24,000 bases of DNA from an uncultured bacterium (GTDB lineage Bacteria; Bacillota_I; Bacilli_A; Izemoplasmatales; Izemoplasmataceae). The translations under genes and the position numbers were made by a program. The DNA is taken from contig CBFCWH010000006.1 in the NCBI GenBank assembly GCA_965601585.1, forward strand, positions 109,418 through 133,417, read 5' to 3'. The stretch's first letter is position 1; every line of letters begins with the position of its first letter. Shown here one piece after another: positions 4,491-21,404 of this stretch. Under the pieces are notes generated by a model. That model ran no database searches. It was not told where the DNA came from and saw only the letters and a program-made list of their open reading frames with translations.

Positions 4491-4579
4491 AGGAGATACA
4501 CAGGGAAAGGTATATAGATCACTTCATGTGGTCTTTTTTTAAGGAAACTACATTTATATTACGAAGGAGATACACTGCT

Positions 4580-6181
4580 ATGAAAAGAATCATTTTACTA
4601 TTAATAATGGGTGTACTTACGCTCTCACTTAGTTCATGTATCATTGAGAGACAAGTAAAAGTAATGAACACATTTACTAATGAGGAAATTGTTGTTGAAA
4701 CAAGAAGTAGAAAAGCGAAAATCGCAATTGATTTTGTTGAGGGGTACGATTTAGAGGGTCTTTACTATGATGAAGCTTGTACAGAACTTTATTTAAAATA
4801 CGATCCAAGTGGATTATTTTTACAAGTTATTGATCAATTGCTCAATAGGAACCGATTCAATAGTCTTCCTGAATCCTCTTTATACGTTATACAAGATAGT
4901 TATGAAGGTATTGTCGATTCACCTTTAATGGAGAAAACTTATTACACTAAATGGGTCCCTAAAGAGTATTCAGTTTATACGATAGAAGAAACTACGACCC
5001 AGTTTAAAGGTATGAAATTGTTTGATAATGAGTTATTTGTTTATACTGATAAGGATATATATAAGCATTCATTATTCGAAACATATAATACTGATACTAG
5101 TGAATCCTACTTCAAGAAGCAGGATTATGACTTGGATTTAGAAGAAGACGAAGTCATTGAGGAAATATATGTACTATCTGAAGGTATTGCAGTATACACA
5201 AGTGCACATTCATTTATTTCAATTATTTATGAGAATTCGAGTTATGAGGTTGTCCGTGTATCAATCCCCTTTTCAAAAGAGAAGCTTAGGAAAATAGAGT
5301 ATAATGATAACTCCATTGCTTTTTTAACATTTGATAATCAGTTTTACGGATTCTTCTCAAATGAATATCATATTTTTGGAGATTTCCCAGATTTTACTCC
5401 AAGAAAAATTAGATATATCGGTAGTGGGTTTGCTGACATCTTTATTTCAGACAAATATTTACTTCATCTTGATAATTACAAAAGACTTTATTTATCAGGT
5501 TCAACCAGTCTTCTAGAAACTGATGAATCAATGAGTGGAATTGGGCAATACAATAGAGAAAAAGTATATACTATAGAAGAAGATAATGATATTGAGAAGA
5601 TTTACTTCTCTCAAAACGGCTCAACAATAATAATTGAATATACTAATGGACAGTATATTGCCAAAGGTTCAACTCAAAATGGATTTTTTGGTGTAGAAGA
5701 TAAATACTATAATGATTTTACAGATGTTACTAGTATTCTTGAAAACAAAATAGACGGTCTTGATATGGATAGTTTTAATATATTGGTGAATCCTGATAAA
5801 TCGATTTCTGATATTGAGGGTAATCTTTTATACGAACCGCTTCAAAATCATGGTGAGGTGATTCAAAGTTTTATTTCTAATAAAGCATATATAACTGTTT
5901 ACGAGGATCAATACATTGATGTTATTCGCTCTAGTTTCGCAAAAAGTAAAGACAATGTTAAAGAGGATAGTTTCGAGTATTCCTACAATAGATTAAGTGT
6001 TAATTACTACCATATTTTAGGATTACAATATATATATAAAGAGGAGTACTTACAGTATTATGATGAAGTTATTGATTATGCAAATAAGACACTCTTTTAC
6101 GATAAGGAGTATTTAAATCAAGTTACTATAATTGAGAAACCAACTTCAAATATTTATGTATATCATGACTCAACAGAATAA
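4580..6181 (+). CDS. Orphan lipoprotein (533 aa), beta-rich and possibly repeat/propeller-like; no family confidently recognised
   Basis: SD AAGGAGA (4564-4570) lies 9 nt before ATG 4580. MKRIILLLIMGVLTLSLSSC is a signal peptide plus lipobox L-S-S-C. The track start at 4526 has no SD. The N-terminal VEGYDLEGLYYDEACTELY resembles a Listeria/Bacteroides-type (GY.F.GWY.D) repeat. Later segments recur as hydrophobic beta-strand/Gly motifs (e.g. AKGSTQNGFFGVED). Confidence 0.8.
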   Translation: MKRIILLLIMGVLTLSLSSCIIERQVKVMNTFTNEEIVVETRSRKAKIAIDFVEGYDLEGLYYDEACTELYLKYDPSGLFLQVIDQLLNRNRFNSLPESSLYVIQDSYEGIVDSPLMEKTYYTKWVPKEYSVYTIEETTTQFKGMKLFDNELFVYTDKDIYKHSLFETYNTDTSESYFKKQDYDLDLEEDEVIEEIYVLSEGIAVYTSAHSFISIIYENSSYEVVRVSIPFSKEKLRKIEYNDNSIAFLTFDNQFYGFFSNEYHIFGDFPDFTPRKIRYIGSGFADIFISDKYLLHLDNYKRLYLSGSTSLLETDESMSGIGQYNREKVYTIEEDNDIEKIYFSQNGSTIIIEYTNGQYIAKGSTQNGFFGVEDKYYNDFTDVTSILENKIDGLDMDSFNILVNPDKSISDIEGNLLYEPLQNHGEVIQSFISNKAYITVYEDQYIDVIRSSFAKSKDNVKEDSFEYSYNRLSVNYYHILGLQYIYKEEYLQYYDEVIDYANKTLFYDKEYLNQVTIIEKPTSNIYVYHDSTE

Positions 6182-6432: not shown

Positions 6433-6448
6433 ATATATATATATATAT
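6433..6448. repeat. (AT)8 dinucleotide microsatellite
   Basis: Direct reading: atatatatatatatat at 6433-6448, about 50 nt upstream of the P1 -35 box. Confidence 0.9.
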
Positions 6449-6495
6449 TTACTACTCTTTTAGTTAGAAATATTGTTGAATAAGAAGGTGAAATA

Positions 6496-6524
6496 TTGAC
6501 AAAGGACATGAATAGTGTTATTAT
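6496..6524 (+). promoter_or_regulatory. Sigma-A type promoter P1 (TTGACA-17-TATTAT with TGn extension) for yhfU-yhfT-amidase
   Basis: TTGACA at 6496-6501, a 17-nt spacer, TG at 6516-6517, TATTAT at 6519-6524. It lies about 75 nt upstream of ATG 6598. Confidence 0.75.
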
Positions 6525-6525
6525 G

Positions 6526-6544
6526 AATGTACAATATTTTGTAC
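6526..6544 (+). promoter_or_regulatory. Operator O1: AATGTACAATATTTTGTAC (TGTACA-N6-TGTACA)
   Basis: This 19-nt string is identical to 9386-9404. It starts 2 nt after the -10 box, so it overlaps the expected transcription start. The TGTACA half-sites are themselves palindromic. Confidence 0.7.
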
Positions 6545-6597
6545 AACGAATAATTGAGAAGGAAAATGCCAAATTCAAAATTTGGTAAGGTGAAAAA

Positions 6598-6957
6598 ATG
6601 GTTAAAATAGTAGTCGGTGGACAAATAGATAAAAAGAGAATTAGAGATATTATTGTTACTTACTCTGGTGATAAGGCAACTGTAGACGTATTAGGGGATT
6701 TAGATGCCGCAATGGCGATGCAAACAGGACAATACGACTATTATATTGGTGCTTGTAATACTGGTGGAGGTGGAGCTTTAGCAATGGCAATCGCTATTTT
6801 AGGATTAGATCAATGTGCTACATTATCAATGCCTGGAAAAATTCTATCTGATGAAAAGATTAAAGAAGAAGTAGAATCAGGAAAAATTGCATTTGGGTTC
6901 ACTGCGCAAGATGCAGATAACGTGTTATCTGTCGTTCTTCCGCTCATTATAAAATAA
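6598..6957 (+). CDS. yhfU: YhfU-like small soluble protein (DUF2620 family), 119 aa
   Basis: SD AAGGTGA precedes the ATG. Its size and its position next to a YhfT-like membrane protein match the E. coli yhfU/yhfT pair. It has a glycine-rich loop, YYIGACNTGGGGALAMA. Confidence 0.65.
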   Translation: MVKIVVGGQIDKKRIRDIIVTYSGDKATVDVLGDLDAAMAMQTGQYDYYIGACNTGGGGALAMAIAILGLDQCATLSMPGKILSDEKIKEEVESGKIAFGFTAQDADNVLSVVLPLIIK

Positions 6958-6980
6958 AGACATAATTTGGAGGTTAATTA

Positions 6981-8264
6981 ATGGAACTTATTATCATTGG
7001 TTTGTTAGGTGCTCTCGCTTCAATACTAGCAAACAAGCAAATTGCCGTATTTCATGATGGGTTTAGACCTATCGTAGGGAATTATTTAAACGGTAAAATC
7101 GACAAGAAGACACTCGGACTTACAAGTTTCGCACTGTCATTTGGATTAGTTATTGGGTTTGGTTTACCATTCTCAATCGGGAAATCAATTATTTTAATTC
7201 ACTGTATCTTATTAGCTACAGATATAATTGGTTCAGTATCACCTACAGGCAAAAAAGGTTTAATTGTCTCAGGTGTAATTGGTGGATTATTTGGTATAGG
7301 ACTTAGTTTAGGATTAGATGTGATTATCGATGCATTTAGTTATTTACCTTATAACTTCTTACCTCATATTGGTAGTGTTGGGAAACCTGTAGTTGTAGCA
7401 TTCGCTGTATTCCCTGCTTTAGCAGTAGCTTTACAACATGATTTCAAGAAAGGACTTTATACTTTAGGAGCAATCTTTGCAACAATGGTATTAGTTAATA
7501 AATTTGGATCATTCAACATTTCTGGAAATACTGTTAAATTAAGTATGGAAGGTATGGGATTATTAGTTGGTGTAATCATGATGATTGTATTTGCAATCAA
7601 AACTGGAGAAAAAACTACTTCAAACCAACAATTAGTAAGTATCTTCGCTACAAACGTAGATAGAATAAAGAAAAACTGGCTATGGTTAGTAATAATGGGT
7701 GCGTTAGTATCTGCAGCAACAGCTGCAACAATCATTGCTGGAGACCCTATTTCATTAAACTTAATGGCAGAAGGTAAAATGAGTGAAGCTGGATTAGCAG
7801 CATTAGCAAGAGGTATTGGATTTGTACCACTTATCTTTACAACAGCTATTGCAACTGGTGTTTACGCACCTGCTGGTGTAACATTTGTCTTCGCAATTGG
7901 TATCTTTACTGGTAATCCATTCCTTGCGTTTGTATTAGGTGGAGCTATGATTGCATTAGAATTACTAGCATTAAGTGGAGCAGCAAGCTTCTTAGATAGA
8001 TTCGCTGGTGTTAAAAACATGGGTGAACACATTAGAACATCTATGAATAACGTATTAGAAGTTGCATTATTAGTAGGATCAATGATTGCTGCTAATGCAA
8101 TGAGCCCTAAATTTGGATTCTTATTCGTAGTTGCCTTATATACTCTTAACAAAACAAGTAAGAAACCACTTGTTAATATCGCAGTAGGACCTGTTGCTGT
8201 AATCGCATTAGGTATCATTCTAAATGTACTAGCAGTACTTGGACTTTGGATAGTTCCTGCATAA
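6981..8264 (+). CDS. yhfT: YhfT-like polytopic membrane protein (putative transporter), 427 aa
   Basis: SD GGAGG precedes the ATG. The whole protein is highly hydrophobic and Gly/Ala-rich with many predicted TM segments. Size and context match YhfT. Confidence 0.7.
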   Translation: MELIIIGLLGALASILANKQIAVFHDGFRPIVGNYLNGKIDKKTLGLTSFALSFGLVIGFGLPFSIGKSIILIHCILLATDIIGSVSPTGKKGLIVSGVIGGLFGIGLSLGLDVIIDAFSYLPYNFLPHIGSVGKPVVVAFAVFPALAVALQHDFKKGLYTLGAIFATMVLVNKFGSFNISGNTVKLSMEGMGLLVGVIMMIVFAIKTGEKTTSNQQLVSIFATNVDRIKKNWLWLVIMGALVSAATAATIIAGDPISLNLMAEGKMSEAGLAALARGIGFVPLIFTTAIATGVYAPAGVTFVFAIGIFTGNPFLAFVLGGAMIALELLALSGAASFLDRFAGVKNMGEHIRTSMNNVLEVALLVGSMIAANAMSPKFGFLFVVALYTLNKTSKKPLVNIAVGPVAVIALGIILNVLAVLGLWIVPA

Positions 8265-8271
8265 AAATATT

Positions 8272-8295
8272 AAAGGAGTATGCAAATACTCCTTT
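8272..8295 (+). terminator. Intercistronic hairpin (possible partial terminator/attenuator) between yhfT and the amidase gene
   Basis: AAAGGAGTA (8272-8280) / TACTCCTTT (8287-8295), a 9-bp perfect stem with a 6-nt loop, followed by T-rich TCTTATTCCTT. Confidence 0.35.
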
Positions 8296-8321
8296 TCTTA
8301 TTCCTTATAGGAGTGAATACA

Positions 8322-9350
8322 ATGAAATATAGAGATATTGAAAAATACAAAAGAAGAGAACTAAGATGTTTTCAAATACCAAAAAGTATTATTAAAGCTT
8401 TTGATAGACTAAAGGAAGTTGAAACTTGTATTGCTGACAATAAACCTTTCTATATGTTAGGTGTCAAAAACACGGATTACATAACCGACGAAGTAATTAA
8501 AAAACTGCAATCAAATAACTACTTTCCCTTTAGCATTGATAAGATGTCTAGAGGTGGCAGAGCGGTAGACATTGATTTAATCAATCCCATCACGGGTAAA
8601 GTCATGACTGGATCTTCAAGTGGAACAGCTATCAATGTATTAGAGGACATCAATGATATTGGTCTTGGTACAGATGGTGGTGGTTCAGTTTTAGCACCAG
8701 CAATGAGTTTGAATCTGTATGGAATTATCTCACCACTGTTCTATAGAGATGAAACATACATCAAGAAATCTACAGATGGAATATCCTTTGTTCCTTCACT
8801 TGGATTTATATCAAAAGATATTAAACTAATAAAGCAAACAACAAGACTGTTTATCCCTGAAACAGTAACATCAAACATAAGAGTTGTTATTCCTAAAAAA
8901 GGGAATATCATACTTGAAACAGGGCGAGATGTAAATGAAACTATTTCATCAAACTTGAGCCGTTCTGGAATTGAAGTTGAAGAAGTCATATATCCAAACA
9001 TATTTGGAGACAGACAACCTAATATATCTTTTCTATCTGAGATGTTAAATAAGTATGATGTTATTCTCTCATATGAGGGACCAATTGATTACTATGGATT
9101 TGGAGACTCAGTATTTGGATTATTTAATGATGTATCGAGGAATGACCAGGAGAAATCAATGAAAGGTCTTATTCGAGTTGTAAATATGGTGGAAGCATCA
9201 GCCTTAGTGGTACCAGCAAACGATTTTTCGAGTGGGTATGTTATAATCGCTAAATCAACACAAAAAGGTCTTCAATGCCTTTTCGAGATTGAGACAAAAC
9301 TCACAAATAAACTATCTAATACTTTATATGATAGATACTTCACTATATAG
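8322..9350 (+). CDS. Compact amidase-signature (AS) family hydrolase-like protein, 342 aa
   Basis: SD AGGAG (8309-8313) lies 8 nt before ATG 8322. The track start at 8280 sits 1 nt after an SD-like sequence that is buried in the hairpin. TGSSSGTAINVLEDINDIGLGTDGGGSVLAPA (nt 8607-8702; GSSSG at 8610-8624) follows the order and spacing of the classical AS core GGSSGG...G[ST]DxGGS[IV]RxPA. Confidence 0.55.
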   Translation: MKYRDIEKYKRRELRCFQIPKSIIKAFDRLKEVETCIADNKPFYMLGVKNTDYITDEVIKKLQSNNYFPFSIDKMSRGGRAVDIDLINPITGKVMTGSSSGTAINVLEDINDIGLGTDGGGSVLAPAMSLNLYGIISPLFYRDETYIKKSTDGISFVPSLGFISKDIKLIKQTTRLFIPETVTSNIRVVIPKKGNIILETGRDVNETISSNLSRSGIEVEEVIYPNIFGDRQPNISFLSEMLNKYDVILSYEGPIDYYGFGDSVFGLFNDVSRNDQEKSMKGLIRVVNMVEASALVVPANDFSSGYVIIAKSTQKGLQCLFEIETKLTNKLSNTLYDRYFTI

Positions 9351-9353
9351 CAT

Positions 9354-9382
9354 TTGACTAAACATCAAATTTCTTTTATAAT
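9354..9382 (+). promoter_or_regulatory. Sigma-A type promoter P2 (TTGACT-17-TATAAT) for yhfZ-yhfY-php-yhfS-yhfX-yhfW-nagB
   Basis: TTGACT at 9354-9359, a 17-nt spacer, and consensus TATAAT at 9377-9382. Confidence 0.8.
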
Positions 9383-9385
9383 TAA

Positions 9386-9404
9386 AATGTACAATATTTT
9401 GTAC
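9386..9404 (+). promoter_or_regulatory. Operator O2: AATGTACAATATTTTGTAC
   Basis: Exact 19-nt repeat of 6526-6544. It starts 4 nt after the -10 box and ends just before the SD AAGGAGG of the regulator gene. Confidence 0.7.
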
Positions 9405-9418
9405 TATAAGGAGGAAAT

Positions 9419-10333
9419 ATGGTTCTAGAATATAATAAAACATCACAAGTGGTGTTAGAAATAGTAAAAGATTTATTCACGTTAGATATTGGAGATAAGA
9501 TGAAATCTGTAAGAGCATATGTGCAATTACTAGATTCATCACAAGGTACTGTGCAAAATGCAATAAACTACTTAATTGAAACAGGTGGTATTGCTATAGA
9601 TAAACGTGGTTCACAAGGAAGCTATTTGACGAAATTTGATAAGAACATTGTATTATCGTTAATTGGAAAACAGTACATTACTGGTTGTATGCCTTTACCT
9701 TATTCAAAAAGGTATGAAGGAATCGCATCAGGATTAAGTGGACTTGGAAATGATGTAATGAGATTTCATTTAATGTATATGAGAGGTTCTACAAACCGTT
9801 TATCAAGATTAAACGAAGGTACTGTAGATTATGCGATTACTTCACATTCTGCAGCTCTAAGAGCAATACAATCAGGAATGCAATTTGAAATAGTCAAAAC
9901 ATTTGGAGAAAACTCATTCGTTTCGAAGCATGTTCTTGTGAAATCAAGATCATTTAACGGAGAGATCGATGAGAACACGATTTTAGGTATTGATAAAACA
10001 TCTATCGACCAAGTTGAAATCGCAAAACTTCTTGAGAAGAAGATTAGGATTACATTGAAGTACATTAATGCAAGTCAAATCCATAAGTATTTAGATAATG
10101 GAGAAATTGATGCAACAATTTGGAACTATGACGAAATTGCTGAAAAACAATTAAATTATGATTATCTGAATTTAGATTTTATAGAAGGTCTAGGTAAGTT
10201 TAGCGAAACTGTAATTGTAATCAAATCAGATGATCATTTCATGAGAAAAATCATGCAAGAAGAAGTAAACGTAGAAGAAATACTAAAGATTCAAAAAGAT
10301 GTAATAAATGGAATAATAACACCTATTTACTAA
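9419..10333 (+). CDS. yhfZ: YhfZ-like transcriptional regulator (N-terminal GntR-like wHTH plus C-terminal ligand-binding domain), 304 aa
   Basis: SD AAGGAGG precedes the ATG. SVRAYVQLLDSSQGTVQNAINYLIETGGIAIDKRGSQGSYL is a winged-HTH pattern. The remainder looks like an alpha/beta binding domain. Size and context match YhfZ. Confidence 0.7.
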   Translation: MVLEYNKTSQVVLEIVKDLFTLDIGDKMKSVRAYVQLLDSSQGTVQNAINYLIETGGIAIDKRGSQGSYLTKFDKNIVLSLIGKQYITGCMPLPYSKRYEGIASGLSGLGNDVMRFHLMYMRGSTNRLSRLNEGTVDYAITSHSAALRAIQSGMQFEIVKTFGENSFVSKHVLVKSRSFNGEIDENTILGIDKTSIDQVEIAKLLEKKIRITLKYINASQIHKYLDNGEIDATIWNYDEIAEKQLNYDYLNLDFIEGLGKFSETVIVIKSDDHFMRKIMQEEVNVEEILKIQKDVINGIITPIY

Positions 10334-10343
10334 AGGAGTACTT

Positions 10344-10709
10344 ATGAATAGTCAAACAAAATTAAAATTAAACATATTAAAAGAAAAACAAGTAGTATCA
10401 GAAGCTACAGTAGGGAAAGTATTTATCATCGAGAAACTACTTCGAGAAGCGGTTAAAAACATTGAAAGTTTAGATACTGATTTTATGTATACTCATCTAT
10501 CAATGGCGATTAATAGAGCTGATAAAAACGAGCAACTTACTGAAGACAACATAATAATTAGAGAACAACTTGAAATAAGCGAGTTCTTCAACGAAGCAAC
10601 AGAACTTCTTCAAACAGCATCAACACTAATTAATATTGAGTTTAGTCCAGCAGAACAAACTATGATTTTAGCTCATTTCTGTAATATGATATCTCAAAGA
10701 GGTGAGTAG
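10344..10709 (+). CDS. yhfY: YhfY-like stand-alone PRD-domain protein, 121 aa
   Basis: SD AAAGGAG precedes the ATG. The protein is all-helical, with two His in PRD-like contexts: THLSMAINR (His codon at nt 10494) and LAHFCNM (nt 10674). Size and context match YhfY. Confidence 0.6.
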   Translation: MNSQTKLKLNILKEKQVVSEATVGKVFIIEKLLREAVKNIESLDTDFMYTHLSMAINRADKNEQLTEDNIIIREQLEISEFFNEATELLQTASTLINIEFSPAEQTMILAHFCNMISQRGE

Positions 10710-10710
10710 T

Positions 10711-11589
10711 ATGAATCACAATGGTTATACCTTGATGCATGAACATCTAACAATCGATTTATCTCGAATTAAAGGTGATCCTGACACAATACTCGATGAC
10801 ATTGATGACACCATAAACGAGTTTAAGGAACTTTACAATAACGGAGTAAGAAACATCTTAGATGTTACAAATCACGAAATGGGTCGAGATGACGAATCAA
10901 TTATGCGTATTCAACAGGAAACAGGAATACATATCATAACTTCAACAGGGTACTATAAAGACCCTTTTCTATCAGATGAATATATAAATAAAAGTACAAC
11001 ACAATTAGCTGAGCAATTTATCGAAGAGTTAAATAATGGCTTTAACTCATCATTGAATATACCTAAAGTTATAGGTGAAATTGGGACTAGTAAAAATGAA
11101 ATGACACCAAATGAAAAAAAATTGTTTCAAGCTACAAGCATCGCTCAAATGAAAACTGGATGTGTAATATATACGCACACAACTCTAGGTACCTATGGAC
11201 TTGAGCAAGTAGATTTCTTTAAAGCACAAGGTGTTGAATTAAACAAAGTTATAATAGGGCATGTAGATTTATCAGGTAATAAAGAATACATTACTAAACT
11301 ACTTAAAACTGGAGTAAACGTTGGATTTGATACGATAGGGAAAATAAATTACATGAGAGACGAAATACGTGCTGAAATACTTAAACATATCCAGGATATA
11401 GGAATGATTGATCAAGTTGTTCTATCACTTGATATAACAAGAAAATCTCATTTCAAAGTACATGGTGGAATCGGATACAACTACCTCTTCACAAACTTCA
11501 TTCCTTTGTTAAAAGAATATGGGATTACAGAAGAAAGTATCGATAAAATGTTAAGGCAAAATCCAAACCGACTTTTAGGAGGAAAATAA
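10711..11589 (+). CDS. php: Phosphotriesterase homology protein (amidohydrolase-superfamily, PTE family), 292 aa
   Basis: GYTLMHEHL at the N-terminus. All binuclear-metal ligand contexts are present: HEH, GEIGTS, YTHT, IGHVD, SLDIT. It is collinear with my recollection of E. coli Php. ATG 10711 follows SD AAGAGGTGA, and the track's GTG at 10702 is too close to that SD. Confidence 0.9.
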   Translation: MNHNGYTLMHEHLTIDLSRIKGDPDTILDDIDDTINEFKELYNNGVRNILDVTNHEMGRDDESIMRIQQETGIHIITSTGYYKDPFLSDEYINKSTTQLAEQFIEELNNGFNSSLNIPKVIGEIGTSKNEMTPNEKKLFQATSIAQMKTGCVIYTHTTLGTYGLEQVDFFKAQGVELNKVIIGHVDLSGNKEYITKLLKTGVNVGFDTIGKINYMRDEIRAEILKHIQDIGMIDQVVLSLDITRKSHFKVHGGIGYNYLFTNFIPLLKEYGITEESIDKMLRQNPNRLLGGK

Positions 11590-12683
11590 TGAATACATAT
11601 CCATTAGAAAGTTTGACAGTAAAAGATGCAAAGAATTTACAGTTTCGCATCATTGATGAAATAACAAAAGAGTTTAGAGGATATGACATTCTCTCAAGAG
11701 GTGATTTAGGAGTTCGACAACCCGAAAATATTCCCTTAACTACAAGTAAAGTTGAAACTGTAATAAGTAAAATATTCCATGCACAAGCAGCAATGCTTCT
11801 ACGTGGTTCTGGAACAAACGCAATTAGACAAACTTTATCATTACTATGTGAAACTAATAAAACAGTATTAGTACACGTCGCACCAATATACCCTACAACA
11901 GAACACACATTGAAAATGATTGGAGCAGATATAGTTTACGCTGATTTCAATGATGAATTATCGATTGAGAATGTAATTAAGGACAATCCAAGCATCAAAA
12001 CAGCAATAGTTCAAATCACAAGGCAAAAACTATATGATAGATATAGCACAAGTGAGGTAATTAGAACTATTCAGAAAACTAATTGTGAAATCAACATAAT
12101 TACTGATGATAATTATGCAGTATTCAAAATCCCTCAAATAGGATGTGAAACTGGGTCAGATATATCAGCGTTCTCAACCTTTAAACTTCTGGGACCAGAA
12201 GGAATCGGATGTATCGTTGGAAACAAAGATATAATTGAAAAAATCAAAAAAATGAATTACTCAGGTGGTAGTCAAGTACAAGGACATGAAGCTCTAGATG
12301 TTTTAAGAGGATTCGTATACGCACCCGTATCTCTTGCCATTCAAGCAGAAGTAATTAATGAAGTAAACGATTATATCAACACCACTGGCGTTGAAGGTGT
12401 AGAGAAATGTTATATTGCGAATGCACAATCAAAAGTACTAATTATCAAATTAAAGAATGCGAACGCACAAGAAGTATTACGTGAGTCTGAAAAACTAGGA
12501 GCATTACCTCATCCTGTGGGAGCCGAATCAAAATATGAGTTTTCTCCAATGTTTTATCGTGCATCAGGGACATTCAGAAAAGAGGATCCTAACGCCATTA
12601 ATACGTTGATCCGTATAAACCCGAATCGTTCAGGTTCACAAACAATTTTACGTATTCTCAAAGACGCAATACGCAATGCATAG
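11589..12683 (+). CDS. yhfS: YhfS-like fold-type-I PLP-dependent enzyme (SelA/aminotransferase-like), 364 aa
   Basis: The start overlaps the php stop (TAATG), implying translational coupling. SAFSTFKLLGPEGIG resembles the Schiff-base Lys region of SelA-like PLP enzymes. Size and context match YhfS. Confidence 0.65.
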   Translation: MNTYPLESLTVKDAKNLQFRIIDEITKEFRGYDILSRGDLGVRQPENIPLTTSKVETVISKIFHAQAAMLLRGSGTNAIRQTLSLLCETNKTVLVHVAPIYPTTEHTLKMIGADIVYADFNDELSIENVIKDNPSIKTAIVQITRQKLYDRYSTSEVIRTIQKTNCEINIITDDNYAVFKIPQIGCETGSDISAFSTFKLLGPEGIGCIVGNKDIIEKIKKMNYSGGSQVQGHEALDVLRGFVYAPVSLAIQAEVINEVNDYINTTGVEGVEKCYIANAQSKVLIIKLKNANAQEVLRESEKLGALPHPVGAESKYEFSPMFYRASGTFRKEDPNAINTLIRINPNRSGSQTILRILKDAIRNA

Positions 12684-12695
12684 AGGAGTGATTTC

Positions 12696-13838
12696 ATGTT
12701 TTTAGACAAGCTAATAAAGGAAAATCAATTACTCATTGATTATTCTTTAATGATGCATAAACAAGGCGTTTTCTTACCAGATACCTATGTAATTGACATA
12801 GATCAAGTTATCGAAAATGCAAAAAGAATATTAAATGAATGTGGGAGCGATATAACCCCATACTTCATGCTAAAGCAATTAGGACGTAATCCATATATTG
12901 CAAAGAAACTTATTAACCTTGGATATAGTGGTGCAGTCGCTGTTGACTTCAAGGACGTAATAACATTGATGGAGAATGACATTCCAATACGTCATGTTGG
13001 ACATTTGGTTCAAATTCCATCAAAACTAATTCAAATGGTACTTGAGTATGGTGTTGAGTTCATAACGGTCTATAGTTATGAAAAAGCAGCAGAAATAAGT
13101 AAAGTAGCAAAAAAATTAAACATCACCCAAAAATTATTTGTCAAGATATATTCATCAAAGGAACATCTTTACAATGGACAATATTCAGGATTTCACAAAA
13201 ATGAAGCAATAAGACAAATTAAGGAAATCAATATATTACCTAATGTACAAGTAGAGGGATTAACAACTTTCCCTGCATTTATATACTCTCAAGATAAAGA
13301 TGACGTTGTCGAAACAGAAAACTTACATGCATTACTACAAGTAAAAGATGAACTACAAAAGGAAAACATTCACATAAGTGAAGTCAATCTTCCATCATCA
13401 AACTGTGTATACAACATACCTCTTGCAAAATCCTATGGCGCTACTTCAGTAGAACCAGGACATGGACTTTCAGGTACAACAATGTTACATCAAGATCATA
13501 GTTTAGATGAAAAAATTAGTTATTTATATTTATCAGAAGTATCTCATACTTTTGATAGTGATTCGTATGTATATGGAGGAGGGTTCTACGCTAGAGGTAA
13601 CTTATCAAAAGCACTTGTTACTGTAGATAAAAAACCAGTTAAAGCATATCCTTTATCTCCTGAAAGTATTGATTATCATTTACAAATTGAAGGTATACAT
13701 AAAACAGGTAGTCCTGTAATTATGTGCTTTAGAACACAAATGTTTGTTACAAGAAGTCAAATTGCGTTAGTAGAAGGGTTACACTCAAAAGCACCTAAAA
13801 TTGTCGGAATTTATAACACACAAGGTGGGCAATTATAG
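12696..13838 (+). CDS. yhfX: YhfX-like PLP enzyme with alanine-racemase-type N-terminal barrel, 380 aa
   Basis: SD GAGGAG precedes the ATG. PYFMLKQLGRNP is a candidate PLP-Lys context near the N-terminus, as in fold-type-III enzymes. Size and context match YhfX. Confidence 0.6.
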   Translation: MFLDKLIKENQLLIDYSLMMHKQGVFLPDTYVIDIDQVIENAKRILNECGSDITPYFMLKQLGRNPYIAKKLINLGYSGAVAVDFKDVITLMENDIPIRHVGHLVQIPSKLIQMVLEYGVEFITVYSYEKAAEISKVAKKLNITQKLFVKIYSSKEHLYNGQYSGFHKNEAIRQIKEINILPNVQVEGLTTFPAFIYSQDKDDVVETENLHALLQVKDELQKENIHISEVNLPSSNCVYNIPLAKSYGATSVEPGHGLSGTTMLHQDHSLDEKISYLYLSEVSHTFDSDSYVYGGGFYARGNLSKALVTVDKKPVKAYPLSPESIDYHLQIEGIHKTGSPVIMCFRTQMFVTRSQIALVEGLHSKAPKIVGIYNTQGGQL

Positions 13839-15047
13839 ATGAAAAAATTTATTGTCTTAGTATTGGATGGATTTGGAATAGGAGCTATGAAAGATGTAGC
13901 ACTTGTAAGACCTCAAGATCAAGGTTCTAATACCGCATTGCATATCCTAAAAAATACTAATGTATCACTACCAACACTTGAACTACTCGGATTAATGAAC
14001 TCATTGAATTATCAAAGCAATACTATGAAATTTTCAAACGAAGCAGTCTATGGTTCGTCTGAATTAGCTCATTGGGGTGGAGATACATTCTTTGGTCATC
14101 AAGAGATTATGACAACAAAACCCAGAAAACCTCTTAAAATGGCATTTTCACATGTTATTGATAGAGTTGAAAAAGCATTATTAGAGGCGAATTATCCAAC
14201 GGAAAGAATCAATAGAGATGGTGTATCTTTATTATCTATAAACGATGAAATATTTATTGGAGATAATCTAGAAACCGACCTTGGACAAGTTTACAACGTA
14301 ACAACTTCATTTGACTTTGTGAATTTTTTCGATGCTAAGAAAATCGCACGAATTGTTCGGGAAAATGTAGAGGTAGCTAGAGTGATTGTTTTTGGTGGTA
14401 GACATGTAACTAAAAGTGATCTGAAAGATGCAATAGAAACAAAAGAAGGAAAATATATAGGAGTGAATGCCCCTAAGTCCAAAGTATACATAAACGGTTA
14501 TAAAGTGGAACATTTAGGGTATGGAGTGGATTCTACTGAGCAAGTTCAATCAAAACTATATGAACAGAAAAAGGTGAAAACCGCCTTTATAGGAAAAGTA
14601 GCTGATATCTGCAAGAATGACTATGGAGTTTCGTATTCCATAGTTTCTACAGAAGCAGTAATGAATAAGACAATAGAAGCAGTCCAAAGCAACTTATACG
14701 GTTTTATCTGCGCTAATGTTCAAGAAACTGATCTCGCAGGACATTCAGAAAATCCAAAAATTTACGCTGATAAACTTCAAATTGTTGATGATTATTTACC
14801 AATACTAATCAACTTGCTAAGTGATGAAGATGTGTTAGTTGTTATGGCTGATCATGGAAACGACCCAACTGTAGGTCACTCAAAACATACAAGAGAAAAT
14901 GTGCCGTTATTAATATATCGTAAGAACATAAAAAACAGACAAATCGGTACCCGTAAAACACTCGCAGATGTTGGTGCAACAGTCGCTGATTTTTGGGATG
15001 TTGATAATATTCAGTTTGGCACATCATTCTGGAATAAACTACAATAA
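13839..15047 (+). CDS. yhfW: YhfW-like phosphopentomutase-family metalloenzyme (alkaline-phosphatase superfamily mutase), 402 aa
   Basis: The ATG abuts the yhfX stop (TAGATG). DeoB-like motifs: VLVLDGFGIG, GGDTFFGHQEIM, ETDLAGHSENP, MADHGNDPT...HSKHTRENVPLLIY. Confidence 0.85.
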   Translation: MKKFIVLVLDGFGIGAMKDVALVRPQDQGSNTALHILKNTNVSLPTLELLGLMNSLNYQSNTMKFSNEAVYGSSELAHWGGDTFFGHQEIMTTKPRKPLKMAFSHVIDRVEKALLEANYPTERINRDGVSLLSINDEIFIGDNLETDLGQVYNVTTSFDFVNFFDAKKIARIVRENVEVARVIVFGGRHVTKSDLKDAIETKEGKYIGVNAPKSKVYINGYKVEHLGYGVDSTEQVQSKLYEQKKVKTAFIGKVADICKNDYGVSYSIVSTEAVMNKTIEAVQSNLYGFICANVQETDLAGHSENPKIYADKLQIVDDYLPILINLLSDEDVLVVMADHGNDPTVGHSKHTRENVPLLIYRKNIKNRQIGTRKTLADVGATVADFWDVDNIQFGTSFWNKLQ

Positions 15048-15060
15048 TAGTGAGGCAAAA

Positions 15061-15783
15061 ATGAAACTACTAATTTCTAAAGATTATAACGAACTTTCAA
15101 AGAATGCATTTGAAGTATTCAATAATATAGTTAAAGACAAAAAGAACCCAAGAGTAGGGCTTGCAACAGGAAGTTCACCATTAGGACTATATAATCAAAT
15201 TATCGAGAATTATATAAACACAAGTGCAACATATAGTAATTTTGAAATATTCAATTTAGATGAATATATAGGATTAGAGGATAATAATCCGAATAAGTAT
15301 AGTGCTTTTCTATACGAAAATATTTTAGATAAGGCGAACTTTGATACCACAAAAATCGACTTAATTCTTAATAACGAACACTCTGTTGAAGATGAATGTG
15401 AAAGATATCACAAAAATCTAATTGGTAATCCTTTAGATGTTCAGATTCTTGGATTAGGGGCAAACTGTCATATAGGGTTTAATGAACCTGGGACAAGTTT
15501 TGATTCTACAACTCACATTGTGGAATTACAAGAGAAAACAAGAAAAGATAATGCTCGTTTCTTTAACTCAATAGATGAAGTACCAACAAAAGCTATAACA
15601 GTTGGAATCAAAGATATCATGAGCGCAGACAATATCATTTTGGTCGCTTCTGGGAAAGATAAAGCAGAAGCAGTTAGAAAAATGCTTAAAGATGAGATAA
15701 ATAATAATTGTCCTGCCTCAATACTACGTGTACATAAATCTGTTACCGTGATTATAGACGAGGATGCTTCTCAATTTCTGTAA
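15061..15783 (+). CDS. nagB: Glucosamine-6-phosphate deaminase/isomerase family protein (NagB-like), 240 aa
   Basis: MKLLISKDYNELS..., GLATGSSPLGLY, FNLDEYIGL, LGLGANCHIGFNEPG, ITVGIKDIM. The track start at 14968 overlaps yhfW, and ATG 15061 follows a GTGAGG SD. Confidence 0.85.
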   Translation: MKLLISKDYNELSKNAFEVFNNIVKDKKNPRVGLATGSSPLGLYNQIIENYINTSATYSNFEIFNLDEYIGLEDNNPNKYSAFLYENILDKANFDTTKIDLILNNEHSVEDECERYHKNLIGNPLDVQILGLGANCHIGFNEPGTSFDSTTHIVELQEKTRKDNARFFNSIDEVPTKAITVGIKDIMSADNIILVASGKDKAEAVRKMLKDEINNNCPASILRVHKSVTVIIDEDASQFL

Positions 15784-15832
15784 AATAAACCAATCCTGAC
15801 ATAGAACATATGAATAATTCGACAAAATTAAA

Positions 15833-15871
15833 AGAAAGACATAATAGAAATCAGTTCTATTATGTCTTTCT
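15833..15871. terminator. Perfect 17-bp stem-loop after nagB (orientation ambiguous)
   Basis: AGAAAGACATAATAGAA (15833-15849) / TTCTATTATGTCTTTCT (15855-15871) with a 5-nt loop. The T-tract (TTTAATTTT) is on the minus-strand side. The plus-strand side is followed by AAAATATT. Confidence 0.55.
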
Positions 15872-15977: not shown

Positions 15978-16691
15978 ATGAAAAAATTCAGAATTAATTC
16001 ATTCATGGCAGGATTCCTTTATTTACTTGGAACAGTTTTTGGAATAACAAGTGCAGCAGTTGGTGGCAAGGTAATATCATCACTCGTTCAAACGAGCCCG
16101 CTCGAAGGAGCTTCAATATTACAACAAGTAGCGAATGGGGGAAATGAGTTGCTACTAGGGTCGTTTTTTGTATTATTAATGGGTATCTCTTTAGTAGCAA
16201 TGACAGTGTTTCTGTATCCAGTCTTTAAGAAGGATAGTGAGGAACTAGCCTTAGGGATGTTACTTTTCAGAGGAGCTTTAGAAGGTACATGGTATTTTAT
16301 TACAACAATAGGATTCATTGGTTTATTTGTATTGGGCGTTGAATATTCTGGTACTGTAGGAAGTGTAGGAGCAATAGACTCAATAGGAAACTCGTTATAT
16401 CACTTTCTCGATCTTCTTGGATCAGTAGGAACTATTTTGTTTATTACAGGTACAACCTGTATATATATATCTTTCTATAGAACTAAGTTAATCCCGAAAT
16501 GGTTATCTATATGGGGACTTATTGGAGTAGTTCCATATTTACTATATGCAATACTTCATTTCTTTGAACTTGATAATGGAATAGGATTCTACTTACAAAT
16601 GCCCCTAGCATTACAAGAGATGGTTATGGCATTGTGGCTTATGATTAAAGGATTTAATAGTCTCGCTTTAAATAAATTATTAGGAAAGTAA
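15978..16691 (+). CDS. Polytopic membrane protein, 237 aa (possibly DUF4386-like)
   Basis: SD AGGAGAA precedes the ATG. There are multiple hydrophobic segments, and the N-terminal SFMAGFLYLLGTVFGI is reminiscent of DUF4386 proteins. A strong terminator follows. Confidence 0.75.
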   Translation: MKKFRINSFMAGFLYLLGTVFGITSAAVGGKVISSLVQTSPLEGASILQQVANGGNELLLGSFFVLLMGISLVAMTVFLYPVFKKDSEELALGMLLFRGALEGTWYFITTIGFIGLFVLGVEYSGTVGSVGAIDSIGNSLYHFLDLLGSVGTILFITGTTCIYISFYRTKLIPKWLSIWGLIGVVPYLLYAILHFFELDNGIGFYLQMPLALQEMVMALWLMIKGFNSLALNKLLGK

Positions 16692-16708
16692 CATTTAATA
16701 TTCCTATC

Positions 16709-16742
16709 AAACACATTTCACTTGTTGATATGTGTTTTTTTT
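16709..16742 (+). terminator. Rho-independent terminator of the membrane-protein gene
   Basis: AAACACAT (16709-16716) / ATGTGTTT (16730-16737) with inner TCA/TGA pairs, followed by a run of 8 T. Confidence 0.8.
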
Positions 16743-16940
16743 ATGGATTGATCTTAATCCTACTACATAGCTTACTTTCAATATTGCACATGTATATTAC
16801 TAGTTGCAACTACTAGTTGCTTGAATGTTATCGGGTAATCTAATAGGATATTAGTATAGATTGCGAGCGGATAGTAGTAGAATTTTTACTTATTTGCTGT
16901 AATCAATAAATAACCCTCTTTTTATTGATGTAATCAAAGT

Positions 16941-16973
16941 AAAAACCTAATTCATTTTTGAATTAGGTTTTTT
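16941..16973. terminator. Orphan bidirectional intrinsic terminator with no ORF upstream
   Basis: AAAAACCTAATTC (16941-16953) / GAATTAGGTTTTT (16960-16972). An A-run lies upstream and a T-run downstream, so it could work on either strand. Confidence 0.6.
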
Positions 16974-17030
16974 ACATTCTTGCTGAGCCTTAGTGATGAG
17001 TAATACTTATAATAAGTTTGATAAAAAGTA

Positions 17031-17059
17031 TTGACAGTGAAAAAATTAGGTGATATACT
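17031..17059 (+). promoter_or_regulatory. Sigma-A type promoter (TTGACA-17-TGaTATACT) of the YtrA-ABC operon
   Basis: TTGACA at 17031-17036, a 17-nt spacer, TG at 17051-17052, TATACT at 17054-17059. The track ORF start at 17031 falls inside the -35 box. Confidence 0.7.
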
Positions 17060-17111
17060 ACGTTACATAAGTAGTGTAGTGGTTCACATTTTACAGAAAG
17101 AGGTGGTATTT

Positions 17112-17480
17112 GTGATTATATCTACAGATAGTACAACTCCAATATACATGCAAATTGCCAATGGAATTGAAACTGATATCCTAAATGGCTTACTACAGGA
17201 AGGTGAGAGTGCGTACTCTCAATATCAAATATCAAAGCAGTATTCAATAAACCCAGCAACTGCTGCAAAGGGAATCAATGTTTTGGTAAATGAGGGGATT
17301 TTATTTAAGAAGAGAGGGTTAGGAATGTTTGTGTCTGAAGGAGCAGTAGAATTGATTATGAGTAAAAGAAAACAAGTATTTTTATCGACAACTATTGAGA
17401 ATTTTATGCAGGAAGCAGGGAAACTTGGGATTAACAAGTCGGAACTGAAAAAGATGATAGATGACTATAAGGAGGACTAA
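17112..17480 (+). CDS. GntR-family transcriptional regulator, YtrA subfamily, 122 aa
   Basis: GTG 17112 follows SD AAAGAGGTGG. PIYMQIANGIETDILNGLLQEGESAYSQYQISKQYSINPATAAKGINVLVNEGILFKKRGLGMFV is the canonical YtrA-type wHTH, followed by a short helical C-terminus. Confidence 0.85.
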   Translation: MIISTDSTTPIYMQIANGIETDILNGLLQEGESAYSQYQISKQYSINPATAAKGINVLVNEGILFKKRGLGMFVSEGAVELIMSKRKQVFLSTTIENFMQEAGKLGINKSELKKMIDDYKED

Positions 17481-17482
17481 TA

Positions 17483-18367
17483 ATGGATATAATTAGTGCA
17501 AAAGCATTACGTAAAACATATAAAGATGTTGTTGCCTTGGATAATTTAGATGTTGATATTCAAGAAAACAAAATTATAGGTTTAATTGGTAAAAATGGTG
17601 CTGGTAAAAGCACACTTCTCAAAATAATTGCTGGTAGAATTCGTCAATCCTCAGGAGAACTACACGTTTTAGATAATGACGTATTTGACAATCTTGAAGT
17701 ATTGTCTAAAATGATTTTTGTAGATGAGGAGTCCTCATATAATACTACATACAAGGTACAAGATATTTTAGATTTAGCAAAGACATACTATACGTCTTGG
17801 GATGATGTATTAGCGAATAAGTTAATCGATCACTTTAACCTAAAAAAGGATAAGAAGTTTAGAAAACTCTCAAGAGGAATGAGAACACAGGTGAATGTAA
17901 TTGTTGGAATCTGTAGTAGAATGCCAATTACTATATTGGATGAACCTACTTTAGGATTAGACCCTGCATTTAGACAAGATTTTTATCATATTCTTCTAAA
18001 TGACTTTATGAAGCATCCAAGAACTATTATAATATCAAGTCATTTGCTGAATGAAATTGAGATGTTACTAGAAGAGATCATACTGATAGATAAGGGAACT
18101 CTAGTTATGCAAACATCAATGGAAGAGTTCAGTAACTATTCAGTATTCCTAAGTGGTAGAACCGATTTCCTAAGTGATTTCACTAAAAATAAAGAGGTTC
18201 TAAGTACTAGTGATTTTGTTAGAACGTCTGAATATATTATCAAAAACAATCTCAATGAGGAAGAGTTGTCTTTACTGAAACGAAACGAAGTTCAAGTAAA
18301 GAGTGTCTCACCACAAGATTTATTCATTTATCTAACTAATAAAGGGGTGAAGTTTGATGAATTCTAG
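17483..18367 (+). CDS. ABC transporter ATP-binding protein, 294 aa
   Basis: Walker A GKNGAGKST, signature variant LSRGMRTQ, Walker B ILDEPTLGLD, H-loop SSHLL. SD AAGGAGG precedes the ATG. Confidence 0.9.
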   Translation: MDIISAKALRKTYKDVVALDNLDVDIQENKIIGLIGKNGAGKSTLLKIIAGRIRQSSGELHVLDNDVFDNLEVLSKMIFVDEESSYNTTYKVQDILDLAKTYYTSWDDVLANKLIDHFNLKKDKKFRKLSRGMRTQVNVIVGICSRMPITILDEPTLGLDPAFRQDFYHILLNDFMKHPRTIIISSHLLNEIEMLLEEIILIDKGTLVMQTSMEEFSNYSVFLSGRTDFLSDFTKNKEVLSTSDFVRTSEYIIKNNLNEEELSLLKRNEVQVKSVSPQDLFIYLTNKGVKFDEF

Positions 18368-19079
18368 TAATGTAATATTAAATGCATTTAAAGGACTATT
18401 CCTAAATCTGTATTTTGATCTTAGAAAAACTATTAAGATGAGTACGATTGTTGTCGTATCCATCGCACTATTCGATTTTGTGATGGTAGCAATGTTTCTT
18501 GGTTTAGACGAGGATATGTCAAATGATGCCTCAGGTGTTCTCGTATTCGGTACAGTAGCTATGACGGTTGCGTTTTGTGTTTACACCATTTTATCGACAT
18601 CAAAAGAGAAACTTCGTGAGAAATTCTCTTTCCCGATAAACAGAAAAATATTTGCCCTATCGAACTTTGTGTTTTACATGATTGGTTCATTGATTTTGCT
18701 AGCGATACTAACGATACTAGCACCAATGGAAGTATTAGGATATAAGCTCCTAGAGATGTTTTCCGACAAGTTCATGTATATAAGTCTTGTTACGCTTGAA
18801 TCCTATTTCGTTGGAATTATGTCTGCTTGGGCAGTAATGTTAATGTTAGGATCATTAACATACTGTATCACAATATATATAAGAAGATACATACAGTATG
18901 CACTTCCTATAATTACAGTTTTATTTGCGAGTATGTTTCTGTTTGGATGGGTTTCAAATATTTTAGAGTTCCTATTTCAAGAGCGTAACCTATTTTTAAT
19001 GGTACTGAAACTTGTTGGATTTTCCATATTATTTCACTTTCTTGGATATATAGCTTTAACTCAAACGGAGGTTGATTAA
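18357..19079 (+). CDS. ABC-transporter-associated polytopic membrane protein (putative permease), 240 aa
   Basis: It overlaps the end of the ATPase gene. ATG 18357 follows GGGGTGA. There are about six hydrophobic segments. Confidence 0.75.
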   Translation: MNSSNVILNAFKGLFLNLYFDLRKTIKMSTIVVVSIALFDFVMVAMFLGLDEDMSNDASGVLVFGTVAMTVAFCVYTILSTSKEKLREKFSFPINRKIFALSNFVFYMIGSLILLAILTILAPMEVLGYKLLEMFSDKFMYISLVTLESYFVGIMSAWAVMLMLGSLTYCITIYIRRYIQYALPIITVLFASMFLFGWVSNILEFLFQERNLFLMVLKLVGFSILFHFLGYIALTQTEVD

Positions 19080-19080
19080 C

Positions 19081-19563
19081 ATGATTAAAAAGGCAATTAT
19101 ATTTTCACTTATATATGTTGTTGCATTAGTTGCTCTTATAGCATATAATGATGATGTTGAAATCGCTTACATCAATAGTAAGACACTAACAAATACACTA
19201 ACTATAGATCCGACAAATGAGTTGAGTATTGTAACACAATATTATTCGAACTCTCAGTTCAATATGTCCGAGGAGGAGTTAGTACAGTATGCAGCTAGTA
19301 AGATAAGAATCGTCGAGTCAGAAACACTTACAAACACTGTTGAAATTTATGCAATTGACGTTCACAATAAAACAACAGAAAATACTGTAATTGAGCTAAT
19401 AGATAATGAACTTACAGTGCTAAGTGATTTAGGCCCATTGTCAATGTATAAAAGTTCAACGTTTCTTACATACGGGCAGTTTGATGCAAACTATTTCATC
19501 AGGGTTCCTGGGAGAGTCTACGAACTCCATATTCCTAAGGATATGCAATATAGTTTTAATTAA
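19081..19563 (+). CDS. N-terminally membrane-anchored protein of unknown function, 160 aa
   Basis: ATG 19081 lies 9 nt after GGAGG (19067-19071). MIKKAIIFSLIYVVALVALIAY is a single TM anchor. An internal motif recurs: SKTLTNTLTI / SETLTNTVEI. Confidence 0.7.
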   Translation: MIKKAIIFSLIYVVALVALIAYNDDVEIAYINSKTLTNTLTIDPTNELSIVTQYYSNSQFNMSEEELVQYAASKIRIVESETLTNTVEIYAIDVHNKTTENTVIELIDNELTVLSDLGPLSMYKSSTFLTYGQFDANYFIRVPGRVYELHIPKDMQYSFN

Positions 19564-19599
19564 GTATTGATCTCTATTCTATGAAAGAAGGATAATGTA

Positions 19600-21390: not shown

Positions 21391-21404
21391 ATTGTTCTCC
21401 TCCA

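Follow-up and report, generated by a model that had tools for sequence, protein, structure and literature searches.

Ten open reading frames (ORFs) follow one another head to tail on the + strand of the window, a 24,000-nucleotide (nt) stretch of DNA with a G+C content of ~32% from an uncultured Izemoplasmataceae bacterium (contig CBFCWH010000006.1, positions 109,418–133,417). They span 6598–15783, within the region 6496–15871, and correspond to the php-yhf cluster of Escherichia coli, in a different order and together with an amidase gene and nagB. The genes run yhfU-yhfT-[short amidase of the amidase signature (AS) type] and then yhfZ-yhfY-php-yhfS-yhfX-yhfW-nagB. Families were assigned by Pfam and NCBIfam profile searches, and the products were compared by BLASTP with the RefSeq proteins of E. 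coli K-12. In the first unit, yhfU (6598–6957, 119 amino acids [aa]) encodes a DUF2620 protein (145 bits), yhfT (6981–8264, 427 aa) encodes the predicted membrane transporter of the cluster (YhfT family, 517 bits), and the amidase gene (8322–9350, 342 aa; an alternative ATG at 8280 gives 356 aa) matches PF01425 with 30.2 bits against a cut-off of 27. The second unit begins with yhfZ (9419–10333, 304 aa; YhfZ_full, NF041241, 271.5 bits against a cut-off of 260), followed by yhfY (10344–10709, 121 aa), which encodes a stand-alone PRD domain (27 bits), and php (10711–11589 from an ATG, 292 aa; a GTG at 10702 is possible, 295 aa), which encodes a PTE-family protein (259 bits). Two pyridoxal 5′-phosphate (PLP) enzymes follow, one of fold-type I (yhfS, 11589–12683, 364 aa; YhfS-like_C) and one racemase-like, of fold-type III (yhfX, 12696–13838, 380 aa; Ala_racemase_N and YhfX-like_C). 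The last two genes encode a phosphopentomutase-like metalloenzyme (yhfW, 13839–15047, 402 aa; PRK12383, 556.7 bits against a cut-off of 254) and a protein of the glucosamine-6-phosphate (GlcN-6-P) deaminase type (nagB, 15058–15783, 241 aa), which passes TIGR00502 marginally (239.4 bits, cut-off 236.9).

How closely does this locus match that of E. coli? In strain K-12, the same eight families are encoded by one co-directional cluster, yhfZ-yhfY-yhfX-yhfW-php-yhfU-yhfT-yhfS (b3383–b3376), and in the window all eight are likewise encoded on one strand. For seven of the eight proteins, the alignment with the E. coli counterpart covers the full length, at identities from 29% to 52% (YhfU 37%, YhfT 34%, YhfZ 29%, Php 42%, YhfS 48%, YhfX 42%, YhfW 52%), and sizes agree to within 7 residues. 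YhfY gives no BLASTP match to its E. coli counterpart at E < 1e-3, and the second PRD histidine is an asparagine in E. coli; it is assigned by its position, by the PRD match and by an alignment of 78 sequences that includes E. coli YhfY. A first-pass annotation, made by a model from the sequence without database searches, had equated the eight products with the E. coli set, and this holds: the E. coli sizes that it gave (117/434/301/120/292/361/387/408 aa) are the RefSeq values, and profile hidden Markov models place all ten products in the expected families. On this evidence, it is confirmed that the ten-gene locus and the php-yhf cluster of E. coli are truly homologous. The two tightly packed units and the reordering of their genes are likewise borne out by ORF positions and homology, with the order Z-Y-X-W-php-U-T-S in E. 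coli becoming U-T-amidase and Z-Y-php-S-X-W-nagB in the window. At the php/yhfS junction, the stop codon TAA (11587–11589) overlaps the ATG at 11589–11591, so that TAATG spans 11587–11591 rather than 11586–11591 as first reported, a slip of one base. The yhfX stop codon TAG (13836–13838) directly abuts the yhfW ATG (13839–13841), as had been read (TAGATG, 13836–13841).

The locus does not represent a new kind of system but is a variant form of an orphan cluster that was already known. Its closest relative is in Candidatus Izimaplasma sp. HR1 (CP009415.1, ~1,548,800–1,558,000), where the ten genes stand in the identical order, and where the identities to the window proteins are 90% for YhfT, 81% for YhfU, 68% for NagB and 61% for the amidase. 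HR1 is a different species, and its flanks differ: a mannosidase of glycoside hydrolase family 38 and an AraC gene lie upstream in HR1, and a PDC-S37-type helicase-nuclease gene lies upstream in the window. The ten-gene form is therefore already present in the published HR1 genome, and a nine-gene form is annotated publicly, for example on a Cetobacterium megaplasmid. The cluster had been described as lacking an assigned substrate. In agreement with this, RefSeq labels all eight K-12 genes “putative” or “uncharacterized”, and full-text literature searches, whose coverage of subscription journals was thin and incomplete, returned neither a substrate nor a functional study of the cluster. Php had also been described as the only member with a structure; in fact, structures are deposited for Php (1BF6, 4LEF), YhfS (4J8L) and YhfX (4KBX).

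Related clusters are common. A scan with a YhfT alignment, using one genome per species, found relatives in at least 481 stretches, and the best 80 loci were analysed after their genes had been labelled by ORF calling and BLASTP. Five of the six sequences in the query alignment come from Izimaplasma or Bacillota, and the sample is mostly Bacillota. A complete core, defined as yhfT, php, yhfS, yhfX and yhfW, is present in 68 loci; yhfU accompanies it in 64 of these and yhfZ in 65. Gene order varies between lineages. For example, the order is U-T-php-S-Z-Y-X-W-amidase in Lactobacillales and Z-Y-U-T-amidase-php-S-X-W, with or without nagB, in Clostridia, and among the 68 complete clusters the order U-T-amidase-Z-Y-php-S-X-W-nagB is limited to the window and HR1. 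Four pairs are kept across the 68 clusters (U-T, php-S, X-W and Z-Y), and the window has all four. The amidase and nagB had been presented as two added genes that give directional clues. Their apparent functional linkage to the cluster stands, given an operator motif shared by both units and their co-occurrence with the core (57 of 68 complete clusters for the amidase, 12 for a nagB directly 3′ of yhfW). The description of the amidase as an addition does not: it is a standard member of most sampled clusters, and the E. coli cluster is a reduced form without it. The nagB gene is recurrent in a minority. A further reduced cluster lies on the Bacillus thuringiensis plasmid NZ_CP126475.1 (9184–19711 of the stretch examined), with PRD, DUF2620, YhfT, PTE, YhfS-like and racemase-like genes; in its incomplete PLSDB gene table, YhfW, YhfZ and the amidase are not annotated, and two ATP-grasp genes and a major facilitator superfamily transporter gene lie 3′.

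The amidase is a minimal, divergent AS enzyme that forms its own family, with predicted amidase activity, as indicated by fold matches to AS enzymes alone, at low identity, together with its short size. The PF01425 match covers 44 residues, the scores for every NCBIfam amidase model fall far short of the cut-offs, and the curated full-length AS model is not reached. Nevertheless, the AlphaFold model is confident (predicted local distance difference test score, pLDDT, 94.7), and all of the 50 top matches listed from the Protein Data Bank (PDB) are AS enzymes (Foldseek probability 1.0; query-normalised TM-score, TMq, 0.58–0.67; 10%–16% identity). K49, S98/S99 and S122 are invariant in a 39-sequence alignment and correspond to the Lys–cisSer–Ser triad of AS enzymes, and the Gly/Ser-rich signature aligns with GatA. 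Thus, fold, triad and the GSSSG...GGGS motif are common to the window amidase and to AS enzymes such as GatA, malonamidase E2, allophanate hydrolase and ClbL, which have 410–600 residues compared with ~340 here. There are ~1,100 homologues; the 120 listed have 314–413 residues, and those with a named source belong to Bacillota and Izimaplasma. A truncated pseudogene was considered and ruled out on the basis of these homologues of similar length, the invariant triad and the confident model. In complete clusters the gene occupies at least four different positions, and the family is cluster-specific so far, being found within yhf clusters in all seven genomic contexts sampled. Translation probably starts at the ATG at 8322, because a GGAG lies 8 nt 5′ of it, the upstream ATG is within a hairpin, and homologues begin there; an exact 342-aa database entry also begins at the residue encoded by this ATG.

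The hairpin in question (8272–8295, + strand) has a perfect 10-bp stem followed by a T-rich run, lies between the yhfT stop codon and the amidase gene, and overlaps the ATG at 8280. It is possibly a partial terminator or attenuator that limits read-through into the amidase gene. Each unit is preceded by a promoter-like site on the + strand, and these two sites are the best of the region. The first (6496–6524), with its −35 box at position 6496, lies upstream of yhfU and reads TTGACA-17-TATTAT with a TG element; the second (9354–9382), upstream of yhfZ, reads TTGACT-17-TATAAT. Each has 11 of 12 consensus positions, a match to consensus only. The sole strong terminator-like hairpin of the region, a 17-bp hairpin flanked by A/T runs (15833–15871), follows nagB. 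Just 3′ of each −10 box lies an exact copy of the same 18-bp operator-like palindrome, ATGTACAATATTTTGTAC (GTACAA-N4-TTGTAC; + strand, 6527–6544 and 9387–9404), for which the chance expectation in the window is ~0.1 matches even when up to three mismatches are allowed. The palindrome also occurs at both promoters in HR1, 5′ of yhfU and 30 nt 5′ of yhfZ. In 1.5 Mb of related loci, 19 of 33 matches with at most one substitution lie 10–72 nt 5′ of the first cluster gene, and in many loci this distance is 24–72 nt. Because an identical motif stands at both promoters, the U-T-amidase and yhfZ-to-nagB units look co-regulated, and the recurrence of the motif at the 5′ end of related clusters makes a single regulon appear likely. 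The regulator that would bind the palindrome is most likely YhfZ, to judge from its GntR-type helix-turn-helix domain, which is joined to a YhfZ_C ligand domain. A YhfZ homologue in a metagenomic locus (L098, 3849–4772) has a faint Phosphonate-bd (PF12974) match on its C-terminal domain, which hints at a ligand pocket of the periplasmic phosphonate/anion-binding type. YhfY probably adds control through phosphorylation by HPr of the phosphotransferase system (PTS): H51, R58 and E104 are present in all 78 aligned sequences, E. coli included, and H111 in 75, and the window protein keeps both conserved PRD histidines. An Rfam scan of the whole window gave nothing at gathering thresholds, with no known riboswitch or ribonucleic antiterminator (RAT)-type element. 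An (AT)n run, tatatatatatatata, lies at 6434–6449, ~50 nt 5′ of the first promoter-like site.

What kinds of chemistry do the other products suggest? YhfU models as a mini RpiB-like protein, which would give DUF2620 a fold assignment. Its model is confident (pLDDT 96.6), the top Foldseek matches are RpiB proteins (TMq 0.62–0.70; root-mean-square deviation 3.0–3.7 Å), and RpiB/LacAB-like proteins head a profile search of the PDB with weak E-values of 0.08–0.5. The family has an invariant G-A-C-x-T-G-G-G loop in which C53 and T55 are invariant (Cys53-x-Thr55-Gly), and hhalign aligns this loop with C66/T68 of RpiB (E 0.026). The fold and a Cys-x-Thr-Gly loop after the third strand are common to the YhfU model and RpiB/LacAB. 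However, YhfU has 119 residues compared with ~150 in RpiB, and neither the Asp-His at the N terminus of RpiB nor its phosphate-binding residues at the C terminus have obvious equivalents in YhfU. Unlike the RpiB/LacAB genes, yhfU always occurs in a pair with yhfT, the gene for the membrane protein. Against Pfam, at E-values up to 10, YhfU matches DUF2620 alone, and LacAB_rpiB is not matched. Two other assignments were tried. YhfU as an enzyme IIB (EIIB) component of the PTS is rejected for now, since hhalign against GatB and UlaB gave nothing and no EIIB is among the 50 top fold matches listed. YhfT as a member of a known transporter family is unsupported: there is no match to UlaA, none to the PDB by profile, and no second Pfam family at E-values up to 10. 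Php matches 1BF6/4LEF (262 bits), and all six binuclear metal ligands (H-x-H, the bridging Glu, H, H and D) align with those of E. coli Php, in the numbering of the 1BF6 paper; its score for NF007373, 303 bits, is below the cut-off of 486. YhfS matches 4J8L (360 bits), YhfX matches 4KBX (325 bits), and YhfW matches phosphopentomutase-type models. Judged by family, the cluster would contain four enzymes of the sugar-phosphate type, namely YhfW, the RpiB-like YhfU, Php and NagB.

NagB is predicted to act as its family does, on a substrate of the GlcN-6-P type. It scores 268 bits for NF001684, below the cut-off of 326, and at the positions of E. coli D72, D141, H143, E148 and K208 it has D, N, H, E and K; of the 13 NagB sequences linked to a cluster, 10 have Asn at position 141, among them that of the window. 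Does the gene belong to the cluster? It could instead be a housekeeping amino-sugar gene that merely sits at the 3′ end of the operon and says nothing about the yhf product. It is missing from 56 of the 68 clusters, and the linked NagBs, which keep all the catalytic residues and are 37%–58% identical to each other, are ordinary in those residues and form no distinct, closely related clade. In HR1, moreover, a nagA-like gene lies a few genes away, so that locus may be just an amino-sugar neighbourhood. Nonetheless, we regard a purely incidental position as unlikely, though not to be dismissed lightly: nagB takes the same place directly 3′ of yhfW, on the same strand, in ~7 lineages, with a gap of at most 105 nt in 11 of 13 loci, a recurrence far above expectation for a single-copy gene. 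In the window, the two genes are 10 nt apart, there is no promoter-like site comparable to those of the two units, and the strong terminator comes only after nagB. The gene is thus an accessory, yet recurrent, member of the cluster.

Read from gene content, homology, catalytic residues, operator motif and synteny, the locus may be a catabolic regulon under the control of YhfZ that serves an imported conjugate in which an amide bond joins an amino sugar and an amino acid, with an exit via GlcN-6-P and NagB in this lineage. We hold this reading tentatively, rating it somewhat short of an even chance. It takes over from the first-pass interpretation the homology, the two units and the linkage of the amidase and nagB; the amidase counts as a standard member rather than an addition. 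The route proposed there, through phosphorylated intermediates to fructose-6-phosphate, is plausible and is kept as a hypothesis. The two transcription units would form one inducible regulon under the common palindromic operator, most likely via YhfZ. First, YhfT would import a small molecule in which an amino sugar, or a sugar phosphate, is conjugated to an amino acid or amine. Second, the short AS amidase would open the amide bond. Third, the sugar part would be processed by YhfW, which would shift a phosphate, by YhfU acting as an RpiB-like Cys/Thr isomerase, and by Php, which would hydrolyse a lactone or ester. Fourth, in this lineage, the sugar part would leave as GlcN-6-P, to be converted by NagB to fructose-6-phosphate and ammonia. 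Fifth, the amino-acid part would be handled by the racemase-like YhfX and by YhfS, acting as an aminotransferase or a lyase.

Where might such a conjugate come from? The likely source under this scheme is bacterial cell-wall material of the muropeptide type, and in many relatives a secreted PBP4B/YfeW-like lipoprotein could free the substrate outside the cell. Cell-wall-type material is the leading candidate, although our confidence in it is low. A PF00144 gene adjoins the cluster in 14 sampled loci and also in the metagenomic loci L098 and L099. All 14 proteins have a signal peptide or lipobox, in most cases a lipobox, and they are 33%–38% identical to E. coli YfeW; for six representatives the best NCBIfam model is PBP4B/YfeW, at 230–307 bits (cut-off 385). 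In two Clostridium loci, the palindrome (G/A)TACAAAATTTTGTAC lies 5′ of this gene (L040, 6456–6471; L059, 704–719), which suggests that there the PBP4B-like gene may be part of the same regulon. The E. coli gene yfeW stands third in the N-acetylmuramic acid (MurNAc) operon murQ-murP-yfeW (PMC5061867). In Sporomusaceae bacterium UBA7701, genes for a HutC/GntR regulator, a MurP-like PTS IIBC, a 357-aa ORF and MurQ (etherase match, 427 bits) lie directly 3′ of the yhf cluster on the same strand (L060, 16912–21062). The nagB gene, the PBP4B-like gene and this mur adjacency are thus three independent minority links to amino-sugar and peptidoglycan catabolism.

MurNAc operons, such as E. coli murQ-murP-yfeW and Bacillus subtilis murQ-murR-murP-amiE-nagZ-ybbC, offer a close parallel. 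They serve the catabolism of cell-wall amino sugars and end in GlcN-6-P/NagB chemistry, and a secreted protein of the PBP4B/YfeW type is encoded with the E. coli mur operon as well as with about one-fifth of yhf clusters; AmiE of B. subtilis also belongs to PF00144. In contrast, the window has no MurQ etherase, PTS EIIBC or PBP4B-like gene, and the PTE protein, two PLP enzymes, mutase, DUF2620 protein and AS amidase of the yhf set have no counterpart in the mur pathway. Izimaplasma has been described as wall-less (bioRxiv 10.1101/2020.11.18.388454), so a wall-derived substrate would come from other organisms and be scavenged rather than recycled. A broader proposal, unlikely as it stands, is that php-yhf is a widespread, so far undescribed route for scavenging a peptidoglycan-derived amino-sugar/peptide conjugate by means of a new, minimal AS amidase, a mini-RpiB with a new transporter, and a Php-type metallohydrolase, with wall-less Izimaplasma feeding on the walls of others and converting the product to GlcN-6-P for NagB. 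If this is true, the amidase, the mini-RpiB and the Php-type enzyme would each be of a type that is not known to take part in wall recycling.

Several observations weigh against an amino-sugar conjugate, or against a wall-derived one. nagB is missing from 82% of clusters and may be a lineage-specific neighbour, and the PBP4B-like gene, which could be one as well, is missing from ~80% and from the window, percentages that are indicative only because the loci are the 80 best matches to a query-biased YhfT alignment. The YhfU–RpiB link is weak by sequence (E 0.026–0.08) and modest by Foldseek (E ~2e-3). YhfU has no EIIB match and YhfT no match to UlaA or the PDB, so the pair lacks the EIIB/EIIC-type components of a PTS permease, and the PRD protein is the sole PTS-related one. 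Finally, the source of phosphate is unexplained, because no kinase, PTS EII component, glycosidase or MurQ is linked: there is no kinase in any of the 68 clusters, and PTS EIIA/B/C, glycosidase and MurQ genes are neither linked in the window nor recurrent elsewhere. Among 78 co-directional neighbours of 84 loci, a search for kinases, dehydrogenases, aldolases and glycosidases found no recurring enzyme beyond the amidase, nagB and the PF00144 gene. Possible explanations for the missing phosphorylation step are a substrate that is already phosphorylated, a housekeeping kinase or PTS component (the latter being consistent with the presence of the PRD protein), or misleading family assignments.

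The first of these explanations leads to a different substrate, namely wall fragments that carry their own phosphate, such as ribitol- or glycerol-phosphate units of teichoic acid that are D-alanylated or decorated with N-acetylglucosamine (GlcNAc). No kinase would be needed, as the substrate is already phosphorylated, which fits the clusters sampled; YhfW, the RpiB-like YhfU and Php would be pentose-phosphate-type enzymes, and nagB could deal with the GlcNAc decorations. The racemase-like PLP enzyme and the secreted PF00144 hydrolase would also find a place, since PF00144 includes the teichoic-acid D-Ala esterase FmtA. This support is purely circumstantial, however: the PF00144 proteins fit PBP4B/YfeW best, no phosphodiesterase or polyol dehydrogenase is linked, and YhfT has no shown relation to organophosphate transporters. 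We consider a teichoic-acid substrate very improbable.

A second alternative arises from the E. coli cluster, which neither contains nor borders on an amidase gene, nagB or yfeW, and which directly adjoins the fructoselysine operon frlABCDR, an arrangement that also counts against an amino-sugar conjugate. The substrates might instead be glycated amino acids (Amadori or Heyns compounds), with the NagB-type protein acting as a deglycase or deaminase on an N-substituted hexosamine 6-phosphate and the PLP enzymes taking the amino acid. NagB-type chemistry, as known for the family, fits 2-amino-2-deoxy sugar phosphates, and the set includes two PLP enzymes of the amino-acid type. Yet frlB-, frlC- and frlD-type genes are in none of the clusters at 84 loci, with distant matches in only a few related metagenome-assembled genomes; no kinase is linked; and the amidase, present in 84% of clusters, and the secreted PBP4B-like lipoprotein would be left unexplained. 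Degradation of glycated amino acids therefore appears to have a slim chance of being correct.

A third alternative draws on the remaining matches of Php and YhfS. The nearest named NCBIfam relative of Php is a phospho-furanose lactonase (113 bits), and YhfS, like its homologue in L098, has weak matches to the SelA family. The substrate could be an amino-sugar acid or phospho-lactone of the glucosaminate type, in which case Php would open the lactone, YhfX would epimerise the alpha-amino carbon, YhfS would remove ammonia, and YhfW and YhfU would adjust the sugar phosphate. D-glucosaminate-6-phosphate ammonia-lyase, which removes ammonia, is the proposed model for YhfS, and DgaE of Salmonella, a lyase, is SelA-like. 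A D-configured alpha-amino acid would fit with an enzyme of the racemase type. Set against this, all of these matches are far below family cut-offs, no aldolase or dehydrogenase is linked, and the scheme has no role for NagB, which 12 of 68 clusters have, for the amidase, which 57 have, or for the secreted PBP4B-like protein. We see this route as quite improbable.

Why does the identity of the substrate matter? The php-yhf genes are among the larger conserved blocks without known function in E. coli, and relatives occur in at least 481 species-level genomes. The analysis makes an old question more testable and shows no surprising new mechanism. Testable leads include the operator and its candidate regulator, the cluster-specific amidase, the links to NagB and the PBP4B-like protein, the DUF2620 fold, and the fact that a kinase is consistently missing. 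If the substrate does come from cell walls, the cluster would be a new branch of bacterial wall-fragment catabolism, and this would explain its retention by a wall-less sediment bacterium; if it does not, the same leads still limit the range of candidate substrates.

The genes on either side of the locus are of other kinds. Directly 5′ of the cluster, an ORF at 128–4426 (+) encodes a 1432-aa helicase/nuclease (AAA_11, AAA_12 and REase_MTES_1575; PADLOC PDC-S37, 1065 bits, and Hhe, 467 bits), and an ORF at 4526–6181 (+) encodes a 551-aa protein without a match in Pfam or PADLOC; to judge from these matches, the two may form a defence module. On the 3′ side, the genes at 15978–20494 (+) look unrelated to the cluster: they encode a DUF4386 membrane protein; a short GntR regulator (YtrA-like), accompanied by an ATP-binding cassette (ABC) ATPase and by two ORFs without annotation; and a NUDIX hydrolase together with a C_GCAxxG_C_C protein. 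Beyond them, at 20563–23819 (−), nadC, nadB and nadA form a de novo NAD operon (quinolinate phosphoribosyltransferase, L-aspartate oxidase and quinolinate synthase).

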